Assembly: GCA_009886055.1 (NCBI GenBank)
Contig: VFJM01000015.1
Location: 1-42,797, forward strand
DNA: 42,797 nucleotides
Direction of reading: 5' to 3'
Origin: Geobacter sp.
Lineage (GTDB): Bacteria; Desulfobacterota; Desulfuromonadia; Geobacterales; Pseudopelobacteraceae
Part shown: positions 10,061-35,797 of the stretch, piece after piece
How positions within the stretch are numbered: position 1 is the stretch's first letter
Layout of the letters: each line of letters opens with the position of its first letter
Position numbers and translations under genes: made by a program
The notes under the pieces: generated by a model
The model's database searches: none
What the model was told of the DNA's origin: nothing
What the model saw: the letters and a program-made list of their open reading frames with translations, nothing else

Positions 10061-10096
10061 AATATCATGAGAGATATTCGGTCCCCGGTTTTTTTG
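10049..10096 (+). terminator. Rho-independent terminator, expression platform of the riboswitch
   Basis: CCGGG-UCG-CCGAAAUAUC-AUGAGA-GAUAUUCGG-UC-CCCGG is followed by U7 (10089-10095). Its 5' arm overlaps the 3' end of the aptamer, so aptamer closure and terminator formation should be mutually exclusive. Confidence 0.6.
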
Positions 10097-10149
10097 TGCC
10101 GCAACGCCCCCGGGTGCTGAAAGTGGCACATGCTAAAAAAGGAGAACAC

Positions 10150-10635
10150 ATGAGAAGATTCGTTAGAAGTACATTCATCACCTTTACCGCACTGACCTTT
10201 ATGGTTGCTGGACTGATGCTGGCCGGTTGCGGCTCCGGAGGAGGGTCGTCTCAGGACGCCTCTGTTGGAACCCCGCTGGCCGGACAGGCGAGCCTTGCCG
10301 GGCAGGCGTCTCCCGATCCGAACAGTGCCGGTGTAAGCCCGGCTCCGGCCACAGCTACAACCACAACCACAGCTACAGCTACAACCAGTGCGCCCGTCTC
10401 CAAGCAGCTGACCCTGGCCTGGGACCAGGCTGCCGGCGCCACCTCCTATAATCTGTACTGGTCAACCGTTCCGGGGGTCACCCCCACCAACGGGACAAAG
10501 ATCAGCAGTGTCAGCTCCCCTTATGTTCATACCGGCCTGGCCGCCGGCACCAGCTATTATTACGTCGTCACGGCCGTCGACAGCACCAGCGAAAGTATTG
10601 CCTCTGCCCCGGCCTCGGGGGCCACGCCATTGTGA
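10150..10635 (+). CDS. Secreted lipoprotein with Ala/Thr-rich linker and fibronectin type III-like domain
   Basis: ATG at 10150 after AAAGGAGAA. Signal peptide plus lipobox in MRRFVRSTFITFTALTFMVAGLMLAGC. The C-terminal sequence LTLAWDQAAGATSYNLYWSTVPGVTPTNGTKISSVSSPYVHTGLAAGTSYYYVVTAVD is FnIII-like. Confidence 0.75.
   Translation: MRRFVRSTFITFTALTFMVAGLMLAGCGSGGGSSQDASVGTPLAGQASLAGQASPDPNSAGVSPAPATATTTTTATATTSAPVSKQLTLAWDQAAGATSYNLYWSTVPGVTPTNGTKISSVSSPYVHTGLAAGTSYYYVVTAVDSTSESIASAPASGATPL
10351..10386 (+). repeat. Imperfect hexanucleotide tandem repeat (ACAGCT/ACAACC x6) encoding a TATTTTTATATT linker
   Basis: Read directly as acagct acaacc acaacc acagct acagct acaacc, inside the lipoprotein CDS. 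Confidence 0.8.
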
Positions 10636-10982: not shown

Positions 10983-12482
10983 ATGGCCTCTCCCCTGCGC
11001 ATCGCCAAGACCGATCAGACCGAGTTGTTCATTCTTCCATCCATGGCCAACCGGCACGGATTGATCACCGGAGCCACCGGCACCGGGAAAACCGTCACCC
11101 TTCAGACACTGGCGGAACAGTTTTCCGCCATCGGGGTACCCTGTTTCATGTCCGACGTCAAGGGAGACCTGACAGGAATTTCCCAGATTGGCGGCGACAA
11201 CGGAAAAGTAACTGAGCGTCTGGAAAAACTCGGGATTTCAGACCATCAGTTCCGTGCATATCCGGTAACACTCTGGGACCCGTTCGGTGAAACCGGACAT
11301 CCGGTGCGTGCTACCGTATCCGACATGGGCCCTCTGCTGCTGGCGCGGATTCTGGAGTTGAACGAGACCCAGAGCGGCGTTCTTAACCTGCTGTTCAAGG
11401 TCGCTGATGACAACGGCCTGCTCCTGCTGGATTTGAAGGATCTGCGGGGTATGCTGCAATTTATCGGCGACAATTCAAAAAGATTCACCACTGAATACGG
11501 CAACATCTCCTCCGCCAGCGTTGGCGCTATCCAGCGCGGGCTGCTGGCATTTGAAAGCCAGGGTGGGGACAGAATCTTCGGTGAGCCGATGCTGAATATT
11601 GATGATTTGATGCAGACCGAACGGGGCTGCGGCGTCATTAACATCTTGTCTGCCGACAAACTCATGAAGGCCCCAAAATTATACGCCACTCTTCTGTTAT
11701 GGCTGCTCTCCGAGCTGTTCGAAAATCTGCCGGAAGCGGGAGATCTGGAAAAGCCGAAACTGGTCTTTTTCTTCGACGAGGCCCATCTCCTTTTCACCGA
11801 CGCTCCTGCGGCGCTGCTGGAAAAGATCGAACAGATGGTACGTTTGATCCGCTCCAAGGGGGTCGGAGTCTTTTTCATAACCCAGAACCCGGCCGATGTA
11901 CCTGACAAAGTGCTTTCGCAGCTGGGCAACCGGCTGCAGCATGCCCTGCGCGCCTTTTCGCCGCGCGATCAGAAGGCGGTCAGGGCCGCAGCCGAGACCA
12001 TGCGCGACAACAGCGCCCTGGACGAAGAAAAGGCCATCACCGAACTGGGCGTAGGAGAAGCGCTGGTCTCCTGTCTGGACGAACATGGACAGCCCGGAAT
12101 CGTCGAGCGCGCCTTTATCATACCGCCACATTCCCATATAGGCCCGATCAACGCCGACCAGCGGCAGCAGCTGATCCAGTCATCTCTGGTAGCCGGGGTG
12201 TATGAAAAGATGGTTGATCGGGAGTCGGCATACGAGATTCTCAAGGCGCGCGCTGAACAGGCCGCCGCACAGGAGCAGCCTGAGTCAGGCGCCCCCTCAT
12301 CAGGAACGACGCTTGGAGGGATGCTGGAAGATATGCTCGGAGGGAGCTCCGGCTCGGCGGGAAGACGGCGGGAAGGGATCGTAGAGGCCATGGCCAAGAG
12401 TGCCGCCCGTTCCGTGGGGAGTCAGGTAGGGCGGGCCATTATGCGTGGTGTGCTTGGCTCGATTCTTGGCGGAAGACGCTGA
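10983..12482 (+). CDS. DUF853 family P-loop NTPase (YjgR-like, HerA/FtsK-like ATPase)
   Basis: 499 aa. The N-terminus resembles E. coli YjgR as I remember it: [27 protein letters not shown] (Walker A) and [13 protein letters not shown] (Walker B). The C-terminal tail is Gly/Ser-rich. Confidence 0.8.
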
Positions 12483-20258: not shown

Positions 20259-22172
20259 TCACCGTCTGCGCAGGAAGCGTTTATCCCCTGCTCTCACCGT
20301 TATTTTAAGTGAATCAAAATATTCAAGAACCGGAATCATGAATTTTCGGGAGAGTCCCGTTATTTCCCTGAATTCTGCCGGGGTTATCTCCCCCCTGGCT
20401 CGGAGATATTCGACCATGGTCTCCGATATCACCTGCAACGGGGCGGGTGCGTAGAACAGGTCATTCTTTACCTTGACGGCACGCCCCTGCCGGACAAGAA
20501 GGCTCAGGTGTTCAATAACGGTTTTCTCCGGAAGCACGAGCATATCGCACAATTCCTTCACCGTCGGAGGTTCGGCCCCGCTGCCCATCAGCATCTCCTC
20601 CAGTTGCTGCTGAATATCGACATTGCTCTGAGCAACGCCACCTGTTCTTCCCGGCAGCCTGACCTGGTCCCGGTCCGCCACAACTCTCTTTTCGTTTTCA
20701 AGGTACTGCAGGCATTGGCCGAAGAATCGCGCGTCACTCCGGGCCGGAATCCTGGTTTTCAACTCCTCCCTGCTGATGCCGTCCTTTATGGGGTTATTGA
20801 CCAGATATGTTTCAATTCTGCCCAGCAGAATGTCACAGAGATTGTGGAAGCTGTCACGCCCCAGGAAAATACGCGGATCGCGAACCATCTGGATCACCCT
20901 TCCCGACGAGAGGGGGAGGGAAAGTGCCGCATCCAGGCGTTTTGCCGATAATCCGCTGCGCAGGAGAAGATCCTGGAAGGAAATCCCCGAGAGCAGCGAC
21001 GCAGCGACAAGACGCTCTGTCATTTCCGGTTCATCGCCAAGGGACATAGACTCCAGGATGGCGAGCGCCTCAGCCGACCGCCGACGTCTCCGTGGCGGAG
21101 ACGGGTCCAGAATAGTTCCCCCGCCGACCGTTTGTGAGGGGGAATAGCTGCGCAGCACGAATGGGTCACCGTTTAACAGCAGAACCGGGGTTGCAAGACG
21201 CAGCTGGGCGAAGGCGCTCTCCCCCGGCTCAAGGCTCATCTTGTCCAGCAGGATAACCTGCGCCGAAACTTCGTATGTCGCCGAATGCAGACGGAGGGTT
21301 GAACGGTGCTTGAGCGGCCGCTCAGCCGACTTCAGGCAGGTAATCTCGACATCGACGGTTCTGGTCGCCCTGTAGAGCCCACGGGGGGCCACGACATCGC
21401 CGCGCTCTGCCTGATTGTTGTCAACGCCCTGAAGGTTGAGGGCGAGACGTTGTCCGGCGTAACCGACATCAGCCTTGCTGCCGTGGGCCTGGATGCCCCG
21501 TATTTTCGTGCATATTCCTGACGGCAACAGCTCGACTTCATCGCCAACCCTGATCTGGCCGGACAAGAGGGTGCCGGTGACAACCGTGCCGAATCCGGCA
21601 ACCGTGAACGCCCGGTCAACCGGAAGACGGAAGGGTCCGTCACTCCTCTTCTGATCGACCCGACCAGCCATCTTCCGCAGCTCTTCCTTCAGCTGTTCGA
21701 CTCCCGTACCCCGGCGTGCCGAGACCGGAACTACCGGCGCCCCCTCCAGAAAACTCCCGGCGACAAAGTCCCGGACCTCCTCAGTCACCAGTCCAAGCCA
21801 CTCCGGATCAACCAGATCACACTTTGTCAGGGCGATGAGCCCCTGCTTCACCCCGAGCAGACGGCAGATATCGAGGTGTTCGCGCGTCTGCGGCATTACC
21901 CCCTCATCGGCCGCGATCACCAGCATGACCATGTCCATACCGCCAACACCGGCCACCATGGCGCGGACAAACCTCTCGTGCCCCGGGACATCAACAATGC
22001 CGAGCTGAATGTCCCCGGGCAGCAGCAGATTGGCGAATCCGAGTTCAATGGTTATGCCACGGGCCTTCTCTTCAGGAAGCCGATCCGTATCGACTCCGGT
22101 CAGCGCCTTGACCAGTGATGTTTTGCCATGGTCGATATGTCCGGCGGTACCGAGGATGAGGTTCTTTGTCAT
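20259..22172 (-). CDS. selB: Selenocysteine-specific translation elongation factor SelB
   Basis: The GTPase N-terminus reads [42 protein letters not shown] and DVPGHERF. The long C-terminal extension has winged-helix (SECIS-binding) character. The start overlaps the selA stop as ATGA. Confidence 0.95.
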
Positions 22173-23554
22173 GGAAATATGCTCATGGCATCAACGAGAG
22201 CGGGAATGTCGGCATCCTGAAGTGTGCGGAGATCAAGCAGGTACTGTCCCTTCTGAATCCTCCCCAGCACCGGTATTTTGCGCTCCCTGAAAGCCGCATC
22301 TATCCCCTGGGGGGACCACCCTTCAACGCTGATTGCCATGAGGAACGTCGGCAGATCCAGCAGCGGCAGGGAACCGCCACCAACCTGGGAGTCACCGGCA
22401 ACCACCGTGAGGCTGACCGATGCAGGTATTTTGGCCCGAAGCCGGCGAATCCAGGCCGCAGCTTTTGCTTTCAGCGCCGCCGGTTGCAGCGTCAACATGC
22501 GCAACGTGGGTATCTCAGCCACCGCCTCTCTTTCATCCCGGTACAATCTCAAGGTCGCTTCAAGCGCTGCAAGTGTCAGCTTGTCAATCCTGACGGCTCT
22601 TAAGAGCTGCTCTTTTCTCAGTTTGGCAACAAAACTCCGCTTTCCGAGGATGATGCCGGCCTGCGGCCCGCCGAGCATCTTGTCACCACTGCAGGTTACG
22701 ATATCAACGCCCGCCTTCAGATACTCCTGCACCGGAGTCTCGCCGGTTATGCCGTACCGGGAGAGGTCAAGCAGGGAGCCGCTGCCGATATCGGCCATGA
22801 CCGGAATATCCGCCTCCCTGCCGCACCGGACGAGTTGATCAATGGAGACCTCTGCCGTAAACCCGACTACCGAAAAATTGCTGGTATGAACCTTGAGAAG
22901 CAGGGCCGTTTCCGGAGAAATGGCGGTTTGATAATCCTTCAGATGGGTGCGGTTTGTGGTTCCGACCTCCTTCAATATGCCGCCACTCAACCTCATGACG
23001 TCTGGAATTCTGAACGACCCGCCAATCTCGACAAGTTCACCCCGTGAAACCACAACCTCTTTGCCCGCCGCTATCCCTGAAAGGGCCAGCAGGACCGCCG
23101 CGGCATTATTGTTGACGACAAGCGCCGCTTCAGCCCCTGTCAGTTCGCAGAGGAGCGACTCAACGTGAACATAGCGCTCTCCGCGTTCACCTGTCGCCAT
23201 GTCCATCTCCAGGTTCGAGTACCTCTCCGCAACCTCCAGCATCTGCCGGCATGCGGATTTTGCAAGGAGTGAACGCCCAAGGTTGGTATGAACCACGACG
23301 CCGGTACCGTTTACAACAGGGTGAAGAGCGGGAGCAACGATCTGTTCCAGCTCTGTCACGATCAACCCGCAGAGTTGGCTCTCGTCAAGCGCTGCCGCCA
23401 GCTTGCCGTCTACCGAATCAACCCTGAGTGCTGCCAGAACATTCCGTACCGCCGCAAGCACCGTCGGCCGGGGATGCGTTTCAAGGAGTGAAATCAGGGG
23501 TGGAAGAGACAACACTTTATCAACCCCGGGAATTGAACAGATGACTTTCTTCAT
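22169..23554 (-). CDS. selA: L-seryl-tRNA(Sec) selenium transferase SelA
   Basis: The N-terminus is [16 protein letters not shown]. The PLP-lysine context is [14 protein letters not shown]. Start at the ATG (complement of 23552-23554), 7 nt after GGAG. The track start at 23572 is an upstream GTG. Confidence 0.95.
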
Positions 23555-23731
23555 AATGAACTCCAGAAACACCGCTATTTAAAAAGACTGTTTATCAATT
23601 GCATTCACACATCTTGAGTGTGCTAACTTCACGGATATATCAGTTCAATGAAGACATGGCAAGAAACTGCATCAGATTACATGCATGAGCAGCAGCGAAA
23701 CCGATATAAAAAATGCTGGTATGAATAAGAC

Positions 23732-23760
23732 TTGTGCGGACCGGAACCAACAGGTATAAA
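23732..23760 (+). promoter_or_regulatory. Candidate sigma70 promoter for tRNA-Sec
   Basis: TTGTGC (23732-23737), a 17-nt spacer, and TATAAA (23755-23760). It lies about 70 nt upstream of the tRNA 5' end. Confidence 0.3.
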
Positions 23761-23831
23761 TAGTGAAGAGCGCACGTATGGTTGCTTTACGCTGAATGGC
23801 TCGTTTTTAAACTTTTGCCATCGTTGCCAAT

Positions 23832-23929
23832 GGAAGTACGTCAGTCGCTGGCGGGCTGCCCGGTCTTCAAAACCGGTGGGGTGGATGAGAAATTCGCTCG
23901 GTGGGTTCGATTCCCATGTACTTCCGCCA
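23832..23929 (+). tRNA. selC: tRNA-Sec (anticodon UCA)
   Basis: An 8-bp acceptor stem GGAAGUAC/GUACUUCC, discriminator G and encoded CCA. The anticodon loop CUUCAAA has UCA at 23867-23869. A long variable arm and a 5-bp T stem GUGGG/CCCAU with loop UUCGAUU give the 8/5 architecture typical of bacterial tRNA-Sec. Confidence 0.9.
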
Positions 23930-23995: not shown

Positions 23996-25981
23996 TCAAC
24001 GATTGAGCGGAAATGATACCGTGAAGGTAGCCCCTTTCTCTTCTTCGCTCCAGACCGTGATGCTCCCTCCATGGTCCTTGACGATGCCGTACGACACCGA
24101 GAGGCCCAACCCGGTGCCGGTTGCCTTGGTTGTGAAAAACGGGTTGAATATCTGTTGCAGGTTGTCCGGTGCAATGCCGATCCCGGTATCACCCACCGTA
24201 ACAACACACACTTCCGCCGGGATATCCTCTTCGGTAGTCACCGTCAGTGTCCCTCCATCGGGCATGGCCTGCACGGCGTTCAGGATCAGGTTGGTGAACA
24301 CCTGGCGCAACTGGCCGTCATCCCCGTTAACCTGTGCAAGTTCCGGCGCGAACTCCTTGCGGACCATGATGCCGGTAAGCGGCACCTGATGTCCAACCTG
24401 GCCGAGTATCTCATCAAGCAGCCGGTTGATGTTCGTTTTCTCCAGATATCTGCGCTCCCGGCGGGCGAACTGGAGAAGGCTGGCAACGATCCGCTCCACC
24501 CTCCCTACCTGTTGAGCAATAATGTCCGCTTCCTCGCGACAGGGATTCGCCGCTGGAATTGCCATCTGCAACAGCTCGGCGTTGCCACGGATGATTGCCA
24601 TGGGATTGTTGATCTCGTGGGCCACGCCGGCGGCCAGTTCGCCGACCGCCGCAAGCTTTTCGGCACGTACCAGATCTTCCTTGGCCTTGATCAGGAGCTG
24701 ATTCTTCTCCTCCAGTTCCGCAGTCCGCTCACTGACCTTCCGCTCCAGTTCGCTGTTAAGCTCCCTGATTTCTGCTTCCCGCTGGTTCAGCTTACCGGTC
24801 ATAATGTTGAATTCACCGGCAAGATCGCCGATTTCATCGCTGGTCGTGACTGCGATCTGAACGTCTTTCTCACCGGCTGAGAACCGCTTGACGAGGTTCT
24901 GCAGCTCGCGAATCGGTCGTGAAAGACGTGAGCCGATGAACCCTGAAACGGCCAATCCGACCAGCGAGCCTAACAGGAGCACGCCGCAGAAAATAAGGGT
25001 TACTTTCTGTTTGATAGCGGTATACGGCTTTCCCAGCATCCCCACGTAGAGTGAACCGACCACTTTTCCGTCCAGGTCAAGGATCGGTTCATAGGCCGAG
25101 AAATACCAGTCCTTGACGACAAAGGCAGGATCGATCCATTTCTTTTGGTTGACAATGACATGATTGTAAACCTCTTCGGAAAGTCTGGTGCCTATTGCTC
25201 TCCCCCCGCCCTTGGTCTGGACGTTGGTGTTTATCCGGAGGTCGTCAAGAAACATGGTGGCCGTGCCGGCATCCTCTCCCTGGAACTGCACCCCCTCGTA
25301 GACGATCGTTTTGATCTTGTCCACCAGGTTGTTGTTGCCGTTAAGCAGGACTCCGCCGTACAGGGCGCCGACTATCCGTCCCGCCTCATCCCTGACCGGA
25401 GCGGAGGAAACCAGCAGCATGCCGGAGCGTCCGACCTGCTTGTTGCTCGGCCTTGCCCGCGGGGTCTCTAATATCTCTATGGTTGCCTGGCGAGCCAGAT
25501 CAGGCCCTTCCATAAGAAGGTCTTCAGGGGAAAAGATTGCGGTCCCCGCAACCGCCTCGCCTCTGAGGGCACGTGACACAAGCCGGTCCCCGGCGCGGCT
25601 GTCGCCGAAAACCTCCGGGTTTCTTGCCCGGAAGAGGACACGCCCGTCACTGCTGACGGCTGTAAGCATGTCCAGGCGTTCGCTGCTGCGAAGCGGTGAG
25701 AGAAGGGATGAGAGCCTGGCGTGTCTGCCGTTTGCAAACACCGTGGCGGTAAAGGGAGCGTTGGCCGTGAGACTAACCACATCACGGATATGGGCAACTT
25801 CGGAAAGATAAATCTCCCGGGCCGAATTGAGGTCGGTCCTGACCTTTTCCTGCGCCTGGCGGACAACAGAGGAATTGATGGTGTAAATACCGGCCAGCGA
25901 GCAGATCATGATGGCGACAAATAGCGGCAACAACGCGCCGATTGTCAGTTTGACCCGTATGGAGAAACGCTTTAGAGGCAT
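23996..25981 (-). CDS. Sensor histidine kinase: large periplasmic (Cache-like?) domain, HAMP, HisKA, HATPase_c
   Basis: Two TM helices flank a ~290-aa extracytoplasmic region. The HAMP segment is RPIRELQNLVKRFSAGEKD...IGDLAGEFNIM. The H-box is AGVAHEINNPMAII, and the N/G boxes are NLILNAVQAM, DTGIGI and GTGLGLSVS. Confidence 0.85.
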   Translation of the reverse strand: MPLKRFSIRVKLTIGALLPLFVAIMICSLAGIYTINSSVVRQAQEKVRTDLNSAREIYLSEVAHIRDVVSLTANAPFTATVFANGRHARLSSLLSPLRSSERLDMLTAVSSDGRVLFRARNPEVFGDSRAGDRLVSRALRGEAVAGTAIFSPEDLLMEGPDLARQATIEILETPRARPSNKQVGRSGMLLVSSAPVRDEAGRIVGALYGGVLLNGNNNLVDKIKTIVYEGVQFQGEDAGTATMFLDDLRINTNVQTKGGGRAIGTRLSEEVYNHVIVNQKKWIDPAFVVKDWYFSAYEPILDLDGKVVGSLYVGMLGKPYTAIKQKVTLIFCGVLLLGSLVGLAVSGFIGSRLSRPIRELQNLVKRFSAGEKDVQIAVTTSDEIGDLAGEFNIMTGKLNQREAEIRELNSELERKVSERTAELEEKNQLLIKAKEDLVRAEKLAAVGELAAGVAHEINNPMAIIRGNAELLQMAIPAANPCREEADIIAQQVGRVERIVASLLQFARRERRYLEKTNINRLLDEILGQVGHQVPLTGIMVRKEFAPELAQVNGDDGQLRQVFTNLILNAVQAMPDGGTLTVTTEEDIPAEVCVVTVGDTGIGIAPDNLQQIFNPFFTTKATGTGLGLSVSYGIVKDHGGSITVWSEEEKGATFTVSFPLNR

Positions 25982-26004: not shown

Positions 26005-27402
26005 TCAGTCGGTTTCGGATACCCCTTCGGGAACATTCAGCGCGTATTCGGCAATCTTCCTGCCCAGGGTCTTTCGGGTAATGCCGAGCAGTTCGGCAGT
26101 GCGAGTCTTGTGGTAACCGGTTTTTTCCAATAGTTTGATAATGTGCGCCCGCTCGACTCTTTCGAGTGAAGTCGGCGCTTCTTCCGCCGGTGAAGAGGAA
26201 AGGTCGTCACCCCCCCGGATGGGTAGAAGGTCCTCGCTGACCTCATTCCCCCTGGCCAGTATCACGGCACGCTCCATGACGTTTTTCAGCTCCCGGATGT
26301 TTCCCGGCCAGTTGTATTCGCCAAGGAGCCGCAGGGCGCCACTGGTAATGCCTGTGACCTTTTTTTTGGTACGCTGGGAATATTTATTGAGCAGAAACCG
26401 GGCAAGGGGTTCAATATCCTCTTTTCTTTCTCTCAGCGGCGGAAGCGTGATTTTTATGACGTTCAGCCGGTAGTAGAGGTCTTCACGGAAGCGCCCCTCT
26501 TTTATCTCTTTTTCCAGGTTTTTATTGGTCGCGGCCACAAAGCGGATATCGACGGATTTTGACTTTGTGGAGCCGACCGGGAGGAAGTCCCGTTCCTGGA
26601 TGACACGCAGAAGCTTGACCTGGAGGGCCGGGCTTATATCACCGATTTCGTCCAGCAGGAGGGTGCCGCCGTTGGCCTCCTCCAGTAGTCCTTTTTGGGC
26701 AGTAACAGCGCCGGTGAACGCACCACGGATATGACCGAACAGCTGGCTTTCCAGCAGCGAGTCGGTCAGGGCTGCGCAATTGATGGAGAGAAAACGCTGC
26801 CCTTTGCGCGGGCTGTTGTAGTGGATGGCCCTGGCGATCAGCTCCTTGCCGGTCCCGGATTCTCCTTGAACGATAATATTGGCTTCACTTTCCGCTACCT
26901 GGAGGGTGAGCTCGTATACATCGCGAAACTTTTTACTGGCAAAGACTATTTCGCCGGGTGCCGACTGCCTGCTTAACTTCTCTTTGAGATCGCGATTTTC
27001 ATTAATCAGGAATTCTCTTTCCAATGCCTTTTGCAATACTCCCAGGATTTTTTCCTTGGGAAAGGGCTTGGTTATATAGTCGTATGCTCCAAGCTTGATC
27101 GCTTCAACCGCCGAATCTATGGTGCCGTAGGCGGTCATCACCACAATTGGCAGAGCGGGGCGCAGTCTGGCGACCCTTTTCAGTATTTCAATCCCGTCCA
27201 TTCCCGGCATTCTTATGTCCTGCAAGAGCAGGTCGGGGCCGCCGCTTTCATCATTCTCCAGGCGACGCAAAAGCGCCGCGCCGTCGCCGAAGGTTTCAAC
27301 AGTGAGGCCGTGCGATTGCAGCATTTTCTTCAGATAGCGCCGCATCCCTTCTTCATCGTCGCAGATGAGTATCTTTCCTTCGAGCAACTCGCTTCCATTC
27401 AT
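26005..27402 (-). CDS. Sigma54-dependent response regulator (NtrC/AtoC/ZraR family: REC, AAA+, Fis-type HTH)
   Basis: The receiver reads ILICDDEEG...LLLQDIRMPGMDG. The AAA+ domain has GESGTGKELIARAIH and the GAFTGA motif (RGAFTGA). The C-terminal HTH is RTAELLGITRKTLGRKI. Confidence 0.9.
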   Translation of the reverse strand: MNGSELLEGKILICDDEEGMRRYLKKMLQSHGLTVETFGDGAALLRRLENDESGGPDLLLQDIRMPGMDGIEILKRVARLRPALPIVVMTAYGTIDSAVEAIKLGAYDYITKPFPKEKILGVLQKALEREFLINENRDLKEKLSRQSAPGEIVFASKKFRDVYELTLQVAESEANIIVQGESGTGKELIARAIHYNSPRKGQRFLSINCAALTDSLLESQLFGHIRGAFTGAVTAQKGLLEEANGGTLLLDEIGDISPALQVKLLRVIQERDFLPVGSTKSKSVDIRFVAATNKNLEKEIKEGRFREDLYYRLNVIKITLPPLRERKEDIEPLARFLLNKYSQRTKKKVTGITSGALRLLGEYNWPGNIRELKNVMERAVILARGNEVSEDLLPIRGGDDLSSSPAEEAPTSLERVERAHIIKLLEKTGYHKTRTAELLGITRKTLGRKIAEYALNVPEGVSETD

Positions 27403-27565
27403 ATACTTAAATTTCCCTGTTCATGTGGCCGGTGGGACAAAATGATCCGAACAAAGGCCAAAAATACCCGCTAACGCTTCTTCAGTATTCCCGTTCATCA
27501 ACCGGGCGTTTTTTATACAAAAGCATAATCAATATGTTGCGGTATTAAACCGACGTTTTGATAAT

Positions 27566-27581
27566 TGGAATGCATATTGCT
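27566..27581 (+). promoter_or_regulatory. Candidate sigma54 (-24/-12) promoter for the formate dehydrogenase operon
   Basis: TGGAATGCATATTGCT carries the invariant GG and GC dinucleotides at the canonical GG-N10-GC spacing and a good -12 TTGCT. It lies upstream of the structured leader RNA and is divergent from the sigma54 activator gene. Confidence 0.3.
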
Positions 27582-27690
27582 TATGAAGTGAACCTGCAAC
27601 CGATCATATCGGAATCTTTGGAATAATTAAACACAAATATGAATACACCGTTTGCAGAAATTCTGTTGTTAGCAAGTTATTAAACGTATC

Positions 27691-27775
27691 CATCTCCGAG
27701 CCGCACCAGCCTAAGGAAACGGATTCTATGGCATGCGGCCTGCGGGTAACGCCGGAAACGGCGCTGCCCTCCTTT
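27691..27775 (+). promoter_or_regulatory. Structured 5' leader RNA with GAAA tetraloop and 11-nt tetraloop receptor; candidate Moco/Tuco (molybdenum/tungsten cofactor) riboswitch
   Basis: CUCCGAGCC lies at 27694-27702. Hairpin 27701-27738 holds the canonical receptor halves CCUAAG (27710-27715) and UAUGG (27727-27731) on opposite strands. Hairpin 27744-27769 (GGGUAAC-GCCG-GAAA-CGGC-GCUGCCC) has its GAAA loop at 27755-27758. The 3' tail CCUCCUUU is complementary to the fdnG SD. Confidence 0.45.
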
Positions 27776-27983
27776 AGTGAGTTAGATGTTATTTTCTGCT
27801 TTGTTTAGTACGGTAGAAATTATTTATGCGGTTTTTTGCAGAAATGATTTTGTTAGCGTACTTATCCAATTTATTGGGACCGGCAGAAATCACTTCGTGA
27901 ACGAACTATCCTGTCTATGCGGGATGAAAAGGAGATGGTTGGCATCGGTAACGATTACAACCATTTTAAAAGGAGGTACAGCA

Positions 27984-30900
27984 ATGGCGGTATCACGTAG
28001 AGATTTTTTCAAACTCTCCGGTTCCGGGCTTGCGGTTGCCACCCTCGGTTTCAACCTCGCTCCAGTCGAGGCCAAAGCAGAGGATCTGGCTATCCGCTAT
28101 GCCAAAGAGACCACCAGCATCTGTCCGTACTGCGCAGTCGGTTGCGGCATGATTGTGCATACGCTTGGTGGCAACATTATCAACATTGAGGGTGACCCTG
28201 ATCATCCGATCAATGAGGGGGCACTCTGCCCGAAAGGCTCTTCGGCGTATCAATTGCGTGATAACAAGGCGCGCTTGACCAAACCGCTCTATCGAGCGGC
28301 TGGAGCAACCGAGTGGCAAGAGGTTTCCTGGGATTGGGCCGTTGACGAGATAGCCAAGAAGGTTAAAAAAACCCGCGACACCAGTTTCGTGGCGACTTCA
28401 AAGATCAAGATCAAGGAAAAGATCGGTAATGCCGAGGTTGAAAAAGAGATTGAAGCGGTCGTCAACCGTACCATGGGTATCGCATCTGTCGGCAGTGCCG
28501 CCATGGATAATGAAGAGTGTTATCTGTACCAAAAATTCTTACGGGGGTTAGGCCTGGTGTATATAGAACATCAGGCCCGCATTTGACACAGCGCAACAGT
28601 TGCGGCTCTGGCAGAGTCGTTCGGACGCGGTGCAATGACGAACCACTGGATTGATGTAAAGAACTCTGATGTAATCCTTATCATGGGGGCAAACCCCGCT
28701 GAAAATCACCCGATCTCCTTCCGCTGGATCATGAAAGCAAAGGATGCCGGCGCAAAGGTAATTGTCGTTGATCCCCGCTTTACGCGCAGCGCCTCAAAGG
28801 CGGATCTGTATGCTCCGCTCCGCTCAGGAACCGATATTGCGTTTCTGGGAGGGATGATCAATTACATTCTGCAGAACAAACTTCATTTCGAAGAATATGT
28901 CAAAAATTATACCAACGCCGCATATCTGGTAAATGCCGACTTCAAAATGCCGGGTGAACTGAACGGCCTCTTTTCCGGCTATGACCCGAAAAAACGGAGC
29001 TACGATCCCAAGGCGTGGTCATTTCAGAAAAATGCTGATGAATCGATCAAGAAAGATCCGGGTTTGCAGGATCCCCATTGCGTTTTCCAGTTGATGAAGA
29101 AGCATTACTCCCGCTATACGCCAGAACTGGTCAGCAGAATTACCGGCACACCAAAGGATAAACTTCTGGAAGTATATACGCTCTATTCGTCTACCGGAAA
29201 GCCGGACAAGGCGGGTACGGAGCTGTATGCCATGGGGTGGACCCAGCACACGGTTGGCACCCAAAACATCCGTGCCATGTCCATTATCCAGCTTCTTCTG
29301 GGCAACATCGGAATCGCCGGCGGTGGAATAAACGCGTTGCGCGGAGAGGGAAATGTTCAGGGGTCTACCGACCAGGGGCTGCTGTTCCACATCCTCCCCG
29401 GCTACATGCCGGTGCCGTCGGCTGATCTGCCGTCCACGACTGCCTACATCGAGAAAAACACCCCCACATCCAAGGACCCGCAAAGTGCCAACTGGTGGGG
29501 GAACCGCAACAAATACCTGATCAGCTACCTAAAGGCGATTTATGGCGCCAAGGCGACCAAGGAGAACGATTTCGGCTACAACTGGCTTCCCAAGCTGGAT
29601 CCGGGGATGAACGGGTCGTGGCTGATGATCTTTGACAATATGATCAAAGGCAAGTTCAAGGGTTTCTTTGCCTGGGGGCAGAACCCCGCCTGTTCCGGGT
29701 CTAATACAACCAAAGTGAGAAATGCTCTTGCGAAGCTGGATTGGATGGTAGCGGTTAATCTGTTTGATAATGAAACCGCCTCATTCTGGAAAGGGCCGGG
29801 CGTTGATTCTGCATCGGTCAAGACGGAAGTTTTTTTACTCCCTGCTGCCGCTTCTTTTGAAAAAGAGGGGAGTATTTCCAATTCCGGGCGCTGGGCGCAG
29901 TGGCGTTATAAAGCGGTAAGCCCGCTTGGCCAGAGTAAACCGGATGCCGAAATCATCCATGAGCTGTACCAGAAGCTGAAGGGTATGTATGCCAAAGAGG
30001 GGGGGGCGTTGCCGGAACAGTTAACAAATCTTACCTGGAACTATGGCTTTAAGCGGGCCGATGGCACGGTCAAAAACGTTGATGTTCATGCCGTTGCCAA
30101 GGAAATCAACGGCTATTTCCTTGAGGATGTGGAGGATAAGCCGAAACTGAAACCTGGTGAAAAGGCTCCGCCACCACCTCCACCAGGAACACCTAAAAAA
30201 ATGCTCGGTAAAAAGGGTGAGTTGACAGCCGGTTTTGCCCAGCTGCAGGCCGATGGCAGCACCTCCTGCGGCAACTGGATCTACAGCCAGAGTTACAACG
30301 AAAAAGGGAATATGATGGCTCGTCGTGGCAAGAAGGATCCGACCGGGCTTGGCATGTTTCCGGAGTGGAGTTGGTGTTGGCCGGTCAACCGGCGCATTAT
30401 CTATAACCGCGCTTCCTGCGATGTTAACGGTAAACCGTTTAACCTGAAAAAAGCTGTTGTGTACTGGAATCCGGATGCACCACTTCCGAACGGCAAAACA
30501 GGCGCCTGGGTCGGGGACGTGCCGGATGGACCATGGCCGCCGATGGCACATGAAAAAGAGGGTAAAAAGCCTTTTATCATGCGTGCTGACGGAGTTGCTG
30601 CGATTTTTGGCCCCGGCCTGAAGGATGGGCCTTTCCCGGAACATTATGAGCCGATGGAATGTCCGATTCCCGAAAATCTCATGTCCAAACAGATGAACAA
30701 TCCTGCGGTAAAAATTTTCAAGGACACACATGTAAAAGAAGATGTGCTGGCGTCCAACGATGCGCGCTTCCCGCTGGTTGCTACTACCTATCGGGTAACA
30801 GAACATTGGCAGACCGGAGTTATGACTCGCAACACCCCGTGGCTTCTGGAGTTGCAGCCGCGTCAATTCTGTGAGATCAGCGTTGAACTTGCCAAGGAAA

Positions 30901-31160
30901 CAGGGATCAACAACGGCGATATGGTAGAGATATCGTCAGCCCGTGGCAAGATAGACGCTGTTGCCATGGTCACTCCTCGCTTTAAGCCATTTAAAATTGG
31001 TGACAAGATTGTTCATCAAATAGGTATGCCCTGGTGCTTCGGATGGCACACCCCCGGCGTGGGAGACGCCGCTAATCTGCTGACCCCCACTGCGGGTGAC
31101 GCCAACACGATGATTCCCGAGACCAAAGCCTTTATGGTCGGAATCGCGAGAAAGGGGTAA
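27984..31160 (+). CDS. fdnG: Formate dehydrogenase catalytic (alpha) subunit, Mo/W-bis-PGD, selenocysteine-containing, Tat-exported
   Basis: AGGAGG precedes the ATG at 27984. The Tat signal is MAVSRRDFFKLSG. The 4Fe-4S motif is CPYCAVGCGM. An in-frame TGA at 28584-28586 sits in the context EHQARI-U-HSATVAALAESFGRGAMTNHW, the conserved Sec site of FdnG/FdhF-type enzymes. The two ORF-track pieces (27786-28586 and 28635-31160) are in the same frame. Confidence 0.9.
28603..28619 (+). promoter_or_regulatory. Candidate bacterial SECIS upper stem-loop
   Basis: CGGCUCU-GGC-AGAGUCG (7 bp including one G-U) starts 17 nt after the UGA, with a G-rich apical loop. The exact SelB-binding geometry is not verifiable by eye. 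Confidence 0.45.
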
Positions 31161-31163
31161 GTC

Positions 31164-31955
31164 ATGGCCGATACCATTAACCAAACTGCCCGCAAAGGGT
31201 TTCTCGTCGATACCTCCCGCTGCATCGGCTGCCGCTCCTGTCAGGTTGCCTGCAAACAGTGGAACAAGCTGGATGCCGACAAAACCTCCAACAAGGGGAC
31301 GTTTGAAAACCCGCGCGACCTGACCCCGGCTCTCTACAACCGGATCAAATTTATTGAAAAGGAAACCTCGGGCGAGATCTCCTGGCTGTTTTTCAATGAG
31401 CGCTGCATGCATTGCGGCGATGCCGGCTGCATGAAGGTCTGCCCGTCACCGGGAGCGCTCTATCGTACGAAAGAAGGGATCGTGGCCTACAACAAGGAGA
31501 AGTGCATCTCCTGCAAATATTGCGTTTCAGCCTGTCCCTTCAATATTCCCCGCTACGGTTCTGACGACAAGGTCAGCAAATGCCACCTCTGCCAGAGCCG
31601 CGTTGAAGGCGGCATAGCCCCCGCCTGCGCCAAGGCGTGCCCAACGGAAGCACTGAAGTTCGGTAAACGGAGTGACCTTATTGCCAAGGCCACGGCAGCT
31701 AAAAAAACACTGTACGGAGTGGACAGCCTAAATGGACTGGGGGTTGTCTATGCGCTGGAAGGGCCTCCGGAACAGTATGGCCTGCCGACAAATCCGAGTA
31801 TTCCGCTTTCGATCTTCCTCTGGAAAGATGTTATCAAACCGCTCGGTATCCTCGGGTTCTGGGGGAGCATCGGCGCCATGCTGCTGCATTATGTGACTAT
31901 TGGGCCGAAAAAAATTGATAGTGATCATGACGTCAGGGAGGACAGCAATGAGTGA
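31164..31955 (+). CDS. fdnH: Formate dehydrogenase iron-sulfur (beta) subunit with C-terminal TM anchor
   Basis: Four ferredoxin-type Cys clusters: CIGCRSCQVAC, CMHCGDAGCMKVC, CISCKYCVSAC and CHLCQSR...CAKAC. A hydrophobic C-terminal helix is present. Confidence 0.9.
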   Translation: MADTINQTARKGFLVDTSRCIGCRSCQVACKQWNKLDADKTSNKGTFENPRDLTPALYNRIKFIEKETSGEISWLFFNERCMHCGDAGCMKVCPSPGALYRTKEGIVAYNKEKCISCKYCVSACPFNIPRYGSDDKVSKCHLCQSRVEGGIAPACAKACPTEALKFGKRSDLIAKATAAKKTLYGVDSLNGLGVVYALEGPPEQYGLPTNPSIPLSIFLWKDVIKPLGILGFWGSIGAMLLHYVTIGPKKIDSDHDVREDSNE

Positions 31956-32565
31956 TTATATTGAGCGTTTCAGAACCAGCGAACGAATCCTGCACTGGGT
32001 TGTTACGTGCAGCTTCTTTACTCTGCTTCTCACCGGACTTGGGCTCTATTCCAGGCTTTTTAACGGTTTTTTCGGTCTGTTCGGAGGTGGACAGGGCGCT
32101 ATCCTGACCCACAAAATTTCGGGCATTATATTTTTCTTCAGCTCCCTTTACATGTTTTTTAATCATAAAAAGGATGTCTCCAGCTTTGATGATTCCGACT
32201 GGCAGTGGATAAAGAAGTACGGAGGCTATCTCACCAAATACGGAGTCCACTTTGACATCGGCAAGTACAACCCCGGACAGAAGTTGTTTGCCGTATTCAT
32301 TGCCGCCGCTACCGTAGCTCTGGGGTTAACCGGCATCTTCATCTGGTTTCCGGGGTCCTTCCCCCGCTGGATCGTACAGATGTCTCTGCTGCTGCACAGC
32401 ACGATGTTTGTGGGTTCAATAATGTTCGTCGTTGTACATGTATACCTTGCCACCATCGGCAACCCCGGCACCATTGAGGCCATGCTGTACGGCGATGTCC
32501 GAACATTATGGGCAAAAAAACATCACCCGAAATGGTACAAGGACGTTACCGAAGAAAATCAGTAG
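31948..32565 (+). CDS. fdnI: Formate dehydrogenase cytochrome b (gamma) subunit
   Basis: ATG at 31948 after AGGGAGGA, overlapping the fdnH end by 8 nt. The product has four TM helices with conserved His residues (ILHWV, LTHK, LLLHS, VHVY). Confidence 0.85.
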   Translation: MSDYIERFRTSERILHWVVTCSFFTLLLTGLGLYSRLFNGFFGLFGGGQGAILTHKISGIIFFFSSLYMFFNHKKDVSSFDDSDWQWIKKYGGYLTKYGVHFDIGKYNPGQKLFAVFIAAATVALGLTGIFIWFPGSFPRWIVQMSLLLHSTMFVGSIMFVVVHVYLATIGNPGTIEAMLYGDVRTLWAKKHHPKWYKDVTEENQ

Positions 32566-32589
32566 CGAAAAAAAATCAACATAATCTGC

Positions 32590-32612
32590 GTGGGCAGCGT
32601 ATCGCTGCCCAC
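32590..32612 (+). other. Intercistronic perfect 10-bp hairpin between fdnI and fdhE
   Basis: GTGGGCAGCG-TAT-CGCTGCCCAC with no following U-run. Confidence 0.5.
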
Positions 32613-32633
32613 GACGCAGACCAGGGAGCATTG

Positions 32634-33464
32634 ATGTCGTCATACAGCAGTAAAATAAAATCACTGCAGGATGCTGCGGTACGATCACCGGAATATGGAG
32701 CGATCATACCGCTCTTTGTGGAACTCTTCCGCTATCTTGAGGTAGCAGCCGGCCAGACCGGGATTGCAGTCAACGCCCCGCAGAAAAGCCTGAAACATGG
32801 ATTCCCGCTGATCTCGCCTGACAACCTGACCATTGACACCGCCGCCTGCTCTGCATTTCTGAAAGGCGCAATTTCCGTTCTCAGCCGGGTTGGCAACGAG
32901 GGGGCAGACGACCTGTCGAAGATCCGGGAAGCGATCAATGCCGGGGGGCTTGATCTTAAGGCGATGTTCCGCGCTATCCTGGAGCGTAGAAGGAGTGACA
33001 TCGACGAAGCAGCCCTGGCCATAAACGTGCCTGCAACGCTTCTGGAGTACATCTGCGAGATCCCTCTGAAAGCGGCCCTTGAACTCTTTGCCGAAGGTGT
33101 TTCCACTGACGGGCTTGAGAACTGGACAGAAGGGTGCTGCCCGGTTTGCGGTTCGCGGGCCGGCATGGCAGAACTGGCCGGGGAGGAGGGAAAACGGCAC
33201 CTCTTCTGCTCGGCCTGCACGTTCCGCTGGCCCTTCAAGCGTTTGCAGTGCCCCTACTGCGGAAACGAGGAAGTTGACAAGCTCTCCTACTTTGTCGCCG
33301 GTGACGGCGCAACCCGCGTGGACACCTGCAAGGCTTGCAGCCGTTACATCAAAACCCGCGATTCCCGGAAAGGAAATTCAGATGTGCCGATGGAAGTAGA
33401 GGACCTGATGACGATTCACCTTGACCTGCTGGCCGCTAAAGAGGGCTTCGAACGGGGAAAATAA
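32634..33464 (+). CDS. fdhE: Formate dehydrogenase accessory protein FdhE
   Basis: Rubredoxin-like Cys pairs CPVCGS, CSAC, CPYCGN and CKACSRYIK. ATG at 32634 after GGGAG. Confidence 0.85.
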   Translation: MSSYSSKIKSLQDAAVRSPEYGAIIPLFVELFRYLEVAAGQTGIAVNAPQKSLKHGFPLISPDNLTIDTAACSAFLKGAISVLSRVGNEGADDLSKIREAINAGGLDLKAMFRAILERRRSDIDEAALAINVPATLLEYICEIPLKAALELFAEGVSTDGLENWTEGCCPVCGSRAGMAELAGEEGKRHLFCSACTFRWPFKRLQCPYCGNEEVDKLSYFVAGDGATRVDTCKACSRYIKTRDSRKGNSDVPMEVEDLMTIHLDLLAAKEGFERGK

Positions 33465-33492: not shown

Positions 33493-34167
33493 ATGACAAC
33501 TGTCTCTTCAAATCTTATCCACGACGTTACCGGTGTAATACTGGCAGGAGGGCGTTCTTCCCGTATGCACAGCAACAAGGCTCTGCTGCCGTACCGGGGG
33601 GGACGGTTTATCGAAGCCATCCACCGACTGCTGCATGCGATCTTCCCCGAGGTAATCCTCGTAACCAATAATCCGGAACAGTACGAGTTTCTCCCGTGCA
33701 GAAAGGTACCCGACCTTTACGAGGGAATGGGGGTATTGGCGGGAATCCATTCCGGCCTGTATCACAGCAGCAATCCGGCCATATTTGCCGTAGCATGCGA
33801 CATGCCCTATCTGATGGAAAGCCTGATCAGGCATATGGCTTCCCGGGCACATTCCGGCGGTGTCCTGATCCCGGACAGCCCTAACGGGCTGGAACCGCTC
33901 CACGCGGTCTACGGCAAGGAATGCCTTGCTGCCATCGAGGCAACGCTGCTGAGTGGGCAAAGAAGGATCGTCTCCTTTTTTGACCGCACCAATGTCAGCA
34001 AGATGAATGTGGAGCAGGTCGCCTACTTCGACCCCTCATTTGCCTCCTTCATAAATATCAACACACCTCGCGATTATTACGACCTTCGCGACAGAGAGCG
34101 CACCGCCGAACTGCATATCGATGAAAACGTGTTCGATAAGGGCTCTGCCAAACACTCCGCATTCTGA
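33493..34167 (+). CDS. mobA: Molybdenum cofactor guanylyltransferase MobA
   Basis: GVILAGGRSSRM, ALLPYRG and ACDMPYL motifs. Confidence 0.85.
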   Translation: MTTVSSNLIHDVTGVILAGGRSSRMHSNKALLPYRGGRFIEAIHRLLHAIFPEVILVTNNPEQYEFLPCRKVPDLYEGMGVLAGIHSGLYHSSNPAIFAVACDMPYLMESLIRHMASRAHSGGVLIPDSPNGLEPLHAVYGKECLAAIEATLLSGQRRIVSFFDRTNVSKMNVEQVAYFDPSFASFININTPRDYYDLRDRERTAELHIDENVFDKGSAKHSAF

Positions 34168-34375
34168 TTATTGCCAACCATCTGCCGGAAAAGCGCAGAA
34201 AACAACGAGCATGAAGGAAGCGTGCTCACCTTCCTGACGCAGGCCTCGACAAAGATTATCTCACGTGATACGGTTGTTCGTATTGATCCGGGGGTTACCT
34301 CATGTTGCAGCATCAATACCCCGGAAGAACACCGGCAGATGGCAGGTAGCATCTTACGGCCAGAGAAGGATGCTG

Positions 34376-35362: not shown

Positions 35363-35797
35363 ATGGCTCGTGTCGAAGCGGTCTGTATCAGCGAAAACAA
35401 GGGAGAGCGGAAGAAACCGGTCGAATCGGTAACCTTGCGTGAGAACCACGGCATCGTCGGCGACGGCCATGCCGGTGACTGGCATCGCCAAATTAGCCTG
35501 TTGGCCACGGAGAGCATAGACAAGATGCGGGCTCTGGGGCTCGATGTGACGGCGGGCGACTTTGCCGAGAATATCACCACCAGCGGCATCGATCTCGTCT
35601 CACTCCCGATCGGCAGTCGGCTGCAGGTGGGGGAAACCCTGCTGGAGGTAACCCAGATCGGCAAGGAGTGCCACACCCGCTGCGCCATCTTTTACCAGGC
35701 CGGCGACTGCGTCATGCCCAAGGAGGGAATCTTTGCCAAGGTCATCACCGGCGGAGTGATCAGGTCGGGGGATGGGGTGGAGACAATCCTGCAGTGA
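35363..35797 (+). CDS. MOSC domain-containing protein
   Basis: 144 aa with GIVGDGHAG...QISLL...GDFAENITTSGIDL...LEVTQIGKECH, typical of small MOSC proteins encoded next to moaA. Confidence 0.75.
   Translation: MARVEAVCISENKGERKKPVESVTLRENHGIVGDGHAGDWHRQISLLATESIDKMRALGLDVTAGDFAENITTSGIDLVSLPIGSRLQVGETLLEVTQIGKECHTRCAIFYQAGDCVMPKEGIFAKVITGGVIRSGDGVETILQ

Follow-up and report, generated by a model that had tools for sequence, protein, structure and literature searches.

A putative tungsten-cofactor riboswitch of the Moco RNA motif family, with an expanded P5, in the fdnG leader of a Geobacter formate dehydrogenase operon

The fdnG leader and its operon

The window analyzed here is the whole of a 42,797-nucleotide (nt) stretch from an uncultured Geobacter sp. 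(assembly GCA_009886055.1, contig VFJM01000015.1, positions 1 to 42,797), and the subject of this work is a structured RNA in the leader of fdnG, a formate dehydrogenase (FDH) gene located in it. An earlier note on this DNA, written from the letters alone, had tentatively proposed that this leader holds a riboswitch for the molybdenum cofactor (Moco) or the tungsten cofactor (Tuco), with a distal segment complementary to the Shine-Dalgarno (SD) region of fdnG. Our analysis indicates that the element is almost certainly a cis-acting riboswitch of the Moco RNA motif family (RF01055); its helices, the genes around it and the other features discussed are collected in Table 1.

The fdnG product matches TIGR01553 on both sides of its in-frame UGA, with 221.6 bits before and 1167.3 bits after it, and the genes that follow lie on the same strand; the order fdnH-fdnI-fdhE-mobA is conserved in two related loci, L007 and L087 (relatives are designated by locus numbers throughout). 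The divergent kinase and regulator pair is likewise found upstream of the riboswitch in L007, L083, L086, L087 and L088. One metatranscriptome contig joins the 3' part of the aptamer to the fdnG coding sequence.

The sigma-54 pattern TTGG-N8-TTGCT has one match in the window against a chance expectation of 0.39, so that alone it is not significant; an element of this type, TTGGCATGYCTATTGCT, lies upstream of the aptamer in L088, L007, L083 and L086/87 and was recognized by eye in the riboswitch-less loci L001, L002, L004, L006 and L008. No sigma-70-like promoter was found in 27350-28050, and no intrinsic terminator between the sigma-54 element and the start codon. Given the sigma-54-type element upstream, and with no other promoter or terminator found, the aptamer would lie in a leader of ~390 nt. 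A weak terminator-like hairpin with a T-run occurs at 27492-27508 (+), between the start of the regulator gene and the sigma-54 promoter, with no obvious plus-strand gene ending there.

Table 1. Coordinates of the riboswitch, its expression platform and the surrounding genes in the window (MFE, minimum free energy structure).
Feature	Position	Strand	Basis or remarks
selB	20259-22172	-	selenocysteine machinery
selA	22169-23572	-	selenocysteine machinery
tRNA-Sec	23832-23925	+	RF01852, 70.9 bits
Histidine kinase of divergent two-component system	23996-25981	-	NCBIfam
Sigma-54-dependent (NtrC/AtoC-type) response regulator	26005-27402	-	NCBIfam
Candidate sigma-54 promoter TTGGAATGCATATTGCT (GG 27567-8, GC 27579-80)	27565-27581	+	between divergent regulator gene and riboswitch
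P1, 5' strand CCAUCUCC	27690-27697	+	pairs with 27931-27938; alignment of 16 sequences
P2 with 11-nt tetraloop receptor (CCUAAG 27710-15 / UAUGG 27727-31)	27700-27739	+	Rfam alignment, MFE, alignment of 16 sequences
Junction CUGC at the site of the family's optional P3; P3 absent	27740-27743	+	Rfam alignment
P4 capped by GAAA tetraloop 27755-27758	27744-27769	+	Rfam alignment, MFE, alignment of 16 sequences
Conserved core CCUCCUUUAG (the anti-SD of the earlier note); first two C's close P4	27768-27777	+	RF01055 consensus gCCUCCC
Structured insert (expanded P5 loop): conserved UGAGUUAGAUG, long hairpin, conserved CUUCGUGAACGAACUA, small hairpin AUCCUG...CGGGAU	27778-27926	+	149 nt
P1, 3' strand GGAGAUGG, after AAAA 27927-30	27931-27938	+	homologous AAAAGGRGA in all 19 loci
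Platform hairpin H: GGAGAUGGUUG / CAACCAUUUU outer stem, 2x2 internal loop, AUCG-GUAA-CGAU inner stem with GNRA loop	27931-27967	+	consensus fold of 8 fdnG-type leaders
SD region AAAGGAGG of fdnG, 7 nt before ATG 27984	27969-27976	+	sequence
fdnG, formate dehydrogenase-N-type alpha subunit, Tat (twin-arginine translocation) signal, in-frame UGA (selenocysteine) 28584-28586	27984-31160	+	TIGR01553
fdnH	31164-31955	+	NCBIfam
fdnI	31900-32565	+	NCBIfam
fdhE-like	32508-33464	+	NCBIfam
mobA	33493-34167	+	NCBIfam
moaA	34265-35356	+	NCBIfam
moaC-like	35363-35797	+	NCBIfam

Membership of the Moco RNA motif family

The whole window was scanned against Rfam at curated thresholds, which returned three matches; one of these is RF01055, the Moco RNA motif or molybdenum/tungsten cofactor riboswitch, at 27683-27804 (+), with 41.5 bits (gathering score 36) across model positions 1-135 (E-value 1.2e-6 for the whole window and 2e-8 for a 701-nt region). 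The covariance model that the earlier note had named thus matches above its gathering score over its full length and, with cofactor-related genes downstream, bears out the tentative class assignment. In the Rfam alignment the consensus letters CuCCGAGCc, CCUAag...AuGg, gGAAAc and gCCUCCC are found; the junction consensus (CUCCGAG..., ...CCUCC..., ...AAGGAG) of a multistem junction closed by P1 is matched, and the GNRA (GAAA) tetraloop on P4 is accompanied by a tetraloop receptor in the P2 bulge. The position is also typical of the family, a same-strand 5' leader with fdnG, which encodes a bis-molybdopterin guanine dinucleotide (bis-MGD) enzyme, directly downstream and mobA, moaA and moaC in the same gene string.

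The elements that had been picked out by eye all lie exactly where the earlier note put them, namely the receptor halves CCTAAG (27710-27715) and TATGG (27727-27731), the hairpins 27701-27738 and 27744-27769, both of which are predicted by RNAfold, the GAAA loop (27755-27758), CTCCGAGCC (27694-27702), CCTCCTTT (27768-27775), AAAGGAGG (27969-27976) and the ATG at 27984. Its contention that such a tertiary-contact pair is strand-specific and improbable by chance was also upheld: the pattern CCTAAG-N6-20-TATGG-N10-40-GGAAAC has a single occurrence in the 42.8-kb window, both strands counted, and none in 100 dinucleotide-preserving shuffles, which places the combination of receptor and GGAAAC above chance. 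The pair is a built-in feature of the family, in which only five of 176 members lack the GAAA tetraloop on P4 and the P2 receptor co-occurs with that loop (Regulski 2008, PMC2408646); as a family trait, it does not count as an independent discovery. In the window this GAAA tetraloop/11-nt receptor module (Costa and Michel 1995, cited in PMC2408646) has its canonical form, CCUAAG...UAUGG with GAAA on the neighbouring helix. The folding energy of the 122-nt aptamer alone is ordinary (z = -1.31), and the significance of the aptamer rests on the motif and the covariance model, not on stability.

Stem P3 (model positions 61-75) is deleted in the Rfam alignment of the window and in every relative too. 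P3 is missing in 58 of 176 family members, its loss being correlated with Tuco metabolism (Regulski 2008, PMC2408646), which makes Tuco the better of the two options given by the earlier note. Judged from its sequence, the element belongs to the P3-less subclass of RF01055 that comparative genomics has assigned to the tungsten cofactor (Tuco or W-co), and its ligand is somewhat more probably Tuco than Moco.

Related loci

A search with the FdnG N-terminus, using one genome per species, gave 80 loci, the closest N-termini (78-89% identity) coming from metagenome-assembled genomes of Geobacteraceae, Pelobacter and Deferrimicrobium. A regular-expression scan found the motif in two of the 80, L003 and L007, and the riboswitch was not found in the close orthologues L001, L002, L004-L006 and L008-L011 (78-89% identical N-terminus). 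In most close fdnG orthologues the riboswitch is missing though the sigma-54 promoter and the divergent regulator are in place; on sequence comparison it appears to be a sporadic add-on to this operon type. L001 and L002 share an ACAACC-N-AGGAGG end of the leader.

A metagenome scan with a degenerate core pattern, which placed no constraint on P1, P2, the interior of P4 or the downstream sequence, added 16 more loci. Two groups can be distinguished among the riboswitch-bearing loci, with one P3-less aptamer common to both. Group A precedes fdnG (the window, L088, L003, L007, L081, L083, L085, L086/87 and L091), while group B precedes tupA (L084, L092), tupB (L082/95) or a moaE-like gene (L089/94, L090, L093, L096). 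The platform of group B is of a terminator type: AAAAGGGG, which belongs to the P1 3' strand, is able to pair with CCCCUUUU; the latter forms the 5' arm of a terminator of 10-13 bp, and a U-run comes after it. As the antiterminator uses the P1 3' strand, a P1 closed by ligand would mean termination, that is, an OFF switch. The core and the junction CUGC of the group B copies are identical to those of the window, and the optional insert recurs in them with almost the same conserved segments; the copies differ from the window in their antiterminator/terminator platform, in deviating receptor half-sites (CCUACC...CACGG) and in sigma-70-like promoters.

A mosaic boundary was noticed at ~27672: downstream of it, riboswitch and fdnG are 96-97% identical to those of L088, while the adjacent regulator gene is 66% identical and the distance of the sigma-54 promoter differs (-120 in the window vs -212 in L088). 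Riboswitch and fdnG thus seem, from these sequences, to be a module that is exchanged as a unit. The metagenome runs that contain the window sequence come from sediment, groundwater, soil and peat.

A probable long-range P1

The earlier note reported no convincing P1; the helix is very probably a long-range pairing hidden by a large insert. In L003, where core CCCUCCUUUAG runs directly into AAAAGGGGAUGG, Rfam pairs GUCUCC with GGGGAU, all of them standard pairs, at 57.9 bits. The corresponding segment of the window, AAAAGGAGAUGG (27927-38), stands 149 nt further from the core than in L003, and in other loci 48-89 nt further; this AAAAGGRGA homologue of the P1 3' strand follows either the core or the insert directly in 19 of the 19 loci. 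In L091, with its 48-nt insert, the RF01055 model itself treats the P5 loop as carrying a 49-nt insertion and spans it to pair the distal P1 strand. The local P1 drawn by Rfam in the window (CAUCU with AGAUG, ~27784-88) was rejected, its second strand reading AGAAG, AGAAU or AAAAU in other insert-bearing relatives, and Rfam itself using the distal strand in L003 and L091. On these comparisons, the true P1 is very probably formed by CCAUCUCC and GGAGAUGG.

RF01055 scores are 52.7-57.9 bits for insert-less relatives and 30-43 bits for insert-bearing ones, nine of the 15 insert-bearing loci falling below the gathering score; the score of the window is lowered because the model cannot reach the real P1.

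The covariation among related leaders that the earlier note had suggested examining is present. In an alignment of 16 distinct sequences with the insert excised, 89.8% of cells are paired, a share that drops to 36-49% once the partners are shifted by 1-3 columns. Thirteen pairs are changed on both sides, and none of 500 shuffles reaches the covariation score. In P2, 5/6 outer pairs and 4/4 apical pairs are changed on both sides. P1 (helix 1) is 89.1% paired, with two of its eight pairs changed on both sides, and P4 (helix 5) 88.1% paired with two such pairs, its GGG/CCC and GAAA having been fixed by the search pattern.

The insert in P5

The insert that parts P1 from the core is absent (0 nt) in L003, L082/95 and L093 and measures 48-89 nt in 13 other loci of both gene groups. 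Its alignment folds into an 11-bp hairpin, 5 of 14 predicted pairs being changed on both sides, and its 3' end into a small covarying hairpin; the insert of the window folds with z = -2.92. Two segments, UGAGUUAGAAG (27778-27790) and CUUCGUGAACGAACUAUCC (27892-27910), are conserved between the groups above the level of the P2 stems. Both are apparently single-stranded and nearly invariant in L007, L081, L083-L086, L088-L090, L092, L094 and L096, that is, in loci of the fdnG type and of the tupA/moaE type alike. No pairing partner or function was found for either segment in these loci. A closing helix for the insert (AGUU with AACU) was considered and discarded, the compensation being inconsistent, with AGUC in L084 and L086 by eye. 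A dispersed mobile repeat was discarded as well; in 850 kb of sequence the conserved motif was found only inside these riboswitches.

The hairpin apex (~27806-27879) is a strain-specific expansion, with ~73 nt extra in the window. The long-apex form is present in independent assemblies (X2 record 12 and X1 record 4), and short apices are found in other strains and also in L088. This apex is hypervariable, with 9-20-nt loops in other strains from the same and other metagenomes, and the expansion in the window shares UUAGUACGGUAGAAAU with the L081 apex and with a loose end in run X1.

Hairpin H and the Shine-Dalgarno region

Just ahead of the SD region, the fdnG-type leaders share a platform hairpin, H, whose group A consensus reads GGRGAUGGUUG...CAACCAUUUU with an inner AUCG-GYAA-CGAU stem. 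In eight such leaders its 14 pairs are retained nearly throughout, with one-sided changes only (e.g. G-C to G-U), while the internal loop of H, its GNRA loop (GUAA/GCAA), the spacer to the SD and the insert apex are variable. H ends 2 nt before the SD and takes up the entire 3' strand of P1, so that H and P1 are mutually exclusive.

Unconstrained ensembles were computed for nine leaders: P1 had a probability of at most 0.02 and H was formed in all nine, while the SD was unpaired with a probability of 0.03-0.24, the core CCUCCUUU being its main partner in six of the nine. Forcing P1 and freeing the core cost 6-8 kcal/mol and brought SD accessibility up to 0.44-0.50 in four of the nine leaders, the window included, where the unpaired probability of the SD went from 0.04 to 0.44. 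The alternation between P1 and H is probably the switch.

A simpler arrangement had been put forward by the earlier note, with the distal pairing of CCUCCUUU (27768-75) and the SD (27969-76) as sequestering device. The complementarity is real, extending over 8 perfect pairs, and is used in models, including the unconstrained MFE of the leader; it shows, however, no excess over that of riboswitch-less orthologues, and as a switch it was neither confirmed nor refuted. Core-SD duplex energies were -11 to -14.3 kcal/mol in riboswitch-bearing leaders vs -9.2 to -16.2 kcal/mol in riboswitch-less fdnG orthologues, which match the core equally well, and selection for extra SD/anti-SD complementarity was not seen. 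CCUCCUUU is also, as given in textbooks rather than read from this organism, the sequence of the 16S rRNA anti-SD tail. Being at once family core and anti-SD sequence, it will be complementary to any strong SD, and with riboswitch-less orthologues equally complementary, the 8-nt match is not independent evidence of a designed switch. Core and SD are both invariant, which makes covariation between them impossible; moreover, the core CCUCCUUUAG was fixed by the metagenome search pattern, so its invariance in those loci is uninformative.

That this pairing is the sole platform, with H and the distal P1 playing no part, is very unlikely in our judgment: the eight pairs and the predominance of the core among SD partners would be accounted for, but the equal match of riboswitch-less orthologues follows already from the double identity of CCUCCUUU, this arrangement does not explain why H is so strictly conserved and why it overlaps the real P1 strand exactly, and the pairing goes unused in models of L085 and L086. 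The core-SD pairing may occur, according to the models; hairpin H, which the earlier note had missed, is on sequence comparison the more specific candidate for the expression platform.

Other devices were sought in the leader and rejected. There is no intrinsic terminator downstream of the aptamer. Ahead of the real start the fdnG frame stays open for 66 codons, beginning at 27786 and crossing the AT-rich insert (open span 27786-28586), and an AUG occurs inside GGAGAUGG. Relatives differ in the frame relation to fdnG, which is in frame in L007, L081 and L086 but not in the window, L003 or L083, and the SD-like AAAAGGAG abuts that AUG without a spacer; the open frame was therefore taken as non-coding, and a leader peptide or N-terminal extension was set aside.

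Proposed mechanism and direction of the switch

Taken as a whole, it is fairly probable that a P3-less RF01055 riboswitch of the Tuco subclass controls translation initiation of fdnG through competition between P1 and H, in the ON direction; the direction by itself is only slightly favoured. Without ligand, H would win, being local, of 14 pairs and favoured by 6-8 kcal/mol in models; the aptamer would stay open, and the CUCC-containing strands CCAUCUCC and CCUCCUUU would be free to mask AAAGGAGG, keeping fdnG translation low. With ligand, P1 and the core would be locked, the outer stem of H lost, the SD freed and translation turned on. Cofactor supply would in this way gate an enzyme that needs the cofactor, on top of the transcriptional control by the sigma-54 two-component system. 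We lean to ON because the SD is mostly paired in the unconstrained models, with the core as main partner in six of nine, and because no conserved sequestor and no leader terminator were found; making a cofactor-dependent enzyme only when the cofactor is present is also the natural logic.

The same competition could instead act as an OFF switch, in which a ligand-stabilised P1 would release CAACCAU(U) to mask the start region (CCAUU with AAUGG, UAC with GUA) or would otherwise lower initiation, so that the cofactor represses the operon. We consider this, the main rival, unlikely, even if several observations agree with it: the sister copies use the P1 3' strand as antiterminator, with ligand meaning OFF; Moco represses E. 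coli moaA, and it has been suggested that Tuco could repress Mo-enzyme genes (Regulski 2008, PMC2408646); moaA and moaC sit in this operon; and the P1-forced model of L003 pairs UUGUCAU with AUGACGG, lowering AUG accessibility from 0.67 to 0.07. In the window, however, the AUG stays unpaired at 0.98 when P1 is forced in the model, and the SD becomes more accessible; moreover, a joint fold of the P1-closed segment of eight leaders yields no conserved SD/AUG sequestor from the released 3' arm of H. CCAUU:AAUGG, apparently compensated by UCAUU:AAUGA in L003, has only 5 bp across a ~18-nt loop and fails in L091, and was rejected as too weak. Repressing a cofactor-dependent enzyme while its cofactor is present would, in addition, be the less natural logic.

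Several points weigh against a ligand-induced, tungsten-specific ON switch built on P1 and H. The E. coli moaA riboswitch, the experimentally studied member, is an OFF switch (Regulski 2008, PMC2408646); the sister copies with terminators are predicted to be OFF switches, and cofactor would be expected to repress moaA and moaC of this operon rather than induce them. Forcing P1 frees the SD in four of nine leaders, whereas in the others the SD pairs with coding sequence in both states; the stems of H are invariant in the eight leaders, which is conservation without covariation, and core-SD complementarity is no better than in riboswitch-less fdnG orthologues. Most close orthologues (the nine listed above) have no riboswitch, so it is dispensable for this operon type. 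The tungsten assignment, for its part, derives from gene association only, and for the RF01055 family as a whole direct ligand binding has not been shown in the accessible literature, the cofactor being oxygen-labile.

The aptamer might also be an evolutionary relic, or act elsewhere (Rho-dependent termination or mRNA stability), leaving the operon to the sigma-54 two-component system. Most close orthologues manage with that promoter and regulator, Rho could enter the long (~390 nt), untranslated leader, and the 73-nt apex expansion indicates that the region tolerates change. Nevertheless, compensatory changes accompany the conservation of core, P1, P2, P4 and H among loci with regulators only ~65% identical, and the 96-97% identity of riboswitch and fdnG to those of L088, against 66% for the regulator, speaks for a module that is kept and passed on as one piece. 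We therefore regard a relic as highly improbable.

A bolder extension of the ON switch, which we hold only tentatively and think rather doubtful, gives the insert a role of its own. The optional conserved P5 expansion (UGAGUUAGAAG, long hairpin, CUUCGUGAACGAACUA, small hairpin) would be an accessory domain, serving as a tertiary brace or as a protein or second-ligand site, and would mark an as yet undescribed Geobacteraceae subclass of Tuco riboswitches largely missed by Rfam; its fdnG version would be an ON translational switch in which aptamer CCUCCUUU and the CUCC strands act as anti-SD while H holds P1 open.

A possible tungsten link

In relatives, copies of the same aptamer sub-lineage stand before tupA, tupB and a moaE-like gene, and the genes there can be read as one string: regulator <- sigma-54 promoter - riboswitch A - fdnGHI - fdhE - mobA - riboswitch B - tupA... 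- moaA - moaC. It is seen in L083 and L084, on one contig, while L092 shows fdhE - riboswitch B - tupA. The window contains no tup, wtp or aor gene; mobA is followed by a 97-nt spacer (34168-34264) and moaA, and the tup cassette and second riboswitch of L084/L092 are not there. With only this spacer at the site of the cassette, moaA-moaC appear fused to the FDH operon. The gene string of the relatives supports, without proving, a tungsten-centred locus. P3 loss has been used as a Tuco signature in Eubacterium limosum (PMC11725836), and a selective Tuco response is a comparative inference in the literature also (PMC2408646, PMC11725836).

Comparison with known systems

With the E. coli moaA-type Moco RNA (RF01055; PMC2408646), the window element shares the P1-P2-P4-P5 layout around a conserved junction (CUCCGAG...CCUCC...AAGGAG), the GAAA on P4 with its receptor in P2, and the cis position before cofactor-related genes. 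The E. coli type has P3, which the window element lacks, and no 149-nt insert such as the one that splits P1 in the window. The E. coli SD is part of the P1 3' strand, which gives direct sequestration and an OFF response; in the window this strand is only SD-like (AAAAGGAG), the real SD being 38 nt further, behind H. The first gene controlled is an enzyme gene here and one for a biosynthesis protein there.

Tuco riboswitches in the literature also lack P3 and are associated with enzymes of the pyranopterin cofactor, and tungsten transport (tupABC) is represented among the sister copies of our element. Five P3-lacking RNAs are known in E. limosum, those of worABCSL and tupABC having translational platforms that overlap an aptamer helix, as modelled here, and no riboswitch of any type lies upstream of the FDH genes of that organism (PMC11725836). 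In Pelobacter carbinolicus, aorA1-3 are preceded by RNAs of the Moco motif family, the accessible part of the source giving no P3 status (PMC3543383); deltaproteobacterial and Geobacteraceae hosts of the family are already listed in previous reports (PMC2408646, PMC3543383). The family, its P3-less subclass, its presence in Deltaproteobacteria and its occurrence before Pelobacter tungsten enzymes are thus already published. The term formate dehydrogenase is absent from Regulski 2008 (PMC2408646), and an association with fdnG was not found in a search limited to that paper and the E. limosum study; for neither the expanded P5 insert nor hairpin H did the literature searched, incomplete as that search was, yield a description.

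Other features of the window

A complete selenocysteine machinery (selB, selA and tRNA-Sec; 20259-23925) adjoins the operon of the selenocysteine-containing FdnG, and in L003 tRNA-Sec stands directly upstream of the riboswitch in place of the two-component system. In L003, L007 and L091, weak SECIS_3 matches (31.3 bits, gathering score 63) come from a stretch to which the segment 28578-28640 of the window, after the in-frame UGA, is identical; this segment folds as a hairpin with an 8-bp GC-rich apical stem and an ordinary energy (z = +0.59).

A c-di-GMP-I riboswitch (RF01051, 45.9 bits vs a gathering score of 35) lies at 9985-10061 (+). The open reading frame (ORF) just downstream of it, 10096-10635 (179 aa), has only a weak fibronectin-III-like match, and is followed by an ORF for a HerA-like ATPase (10983-12482; PF05872, 754 bits). 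On the minus strand, the ORF 40062-40961 matches no NCBIfam model but has a zinc-dependent phospholipase C domain (PF00882, 83 bits).

Implications

The riboswitch class itself is known, having been described in 2008 and being detected by annotation pipelines. What the locus adds is a periplasmic selenocysteine FDH operon of Geobacteraceae in which a presumed sensor of the tungsten cofactor joins the control by a sigma-54 two-component system, an arrangement that bears on the choice between Mo and W enzymes in these bacteria. With the expanded P5, P1 and the core lie so far apart that the Rfam model scores 15-25 bits lower; given this loss, and with nine of the 15 insert-bearing loci below the gathering score, regulon reconstructions based on RF01055 would undercount this lineage. 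One aptamer, wired to a terminator before tupA and moaE and apparently to a P1-competing hairpin ahead of the SD before fdnG, offers a natural pair for the study of how a sensor is coupled to opposite or different outputs, within a riboswitch class whose oxygen-labile ligand is hard to study. If the accessory-domain and ON reading were true, tungsten-cofactor supply would license the synthesis of formate dehydrogenase.

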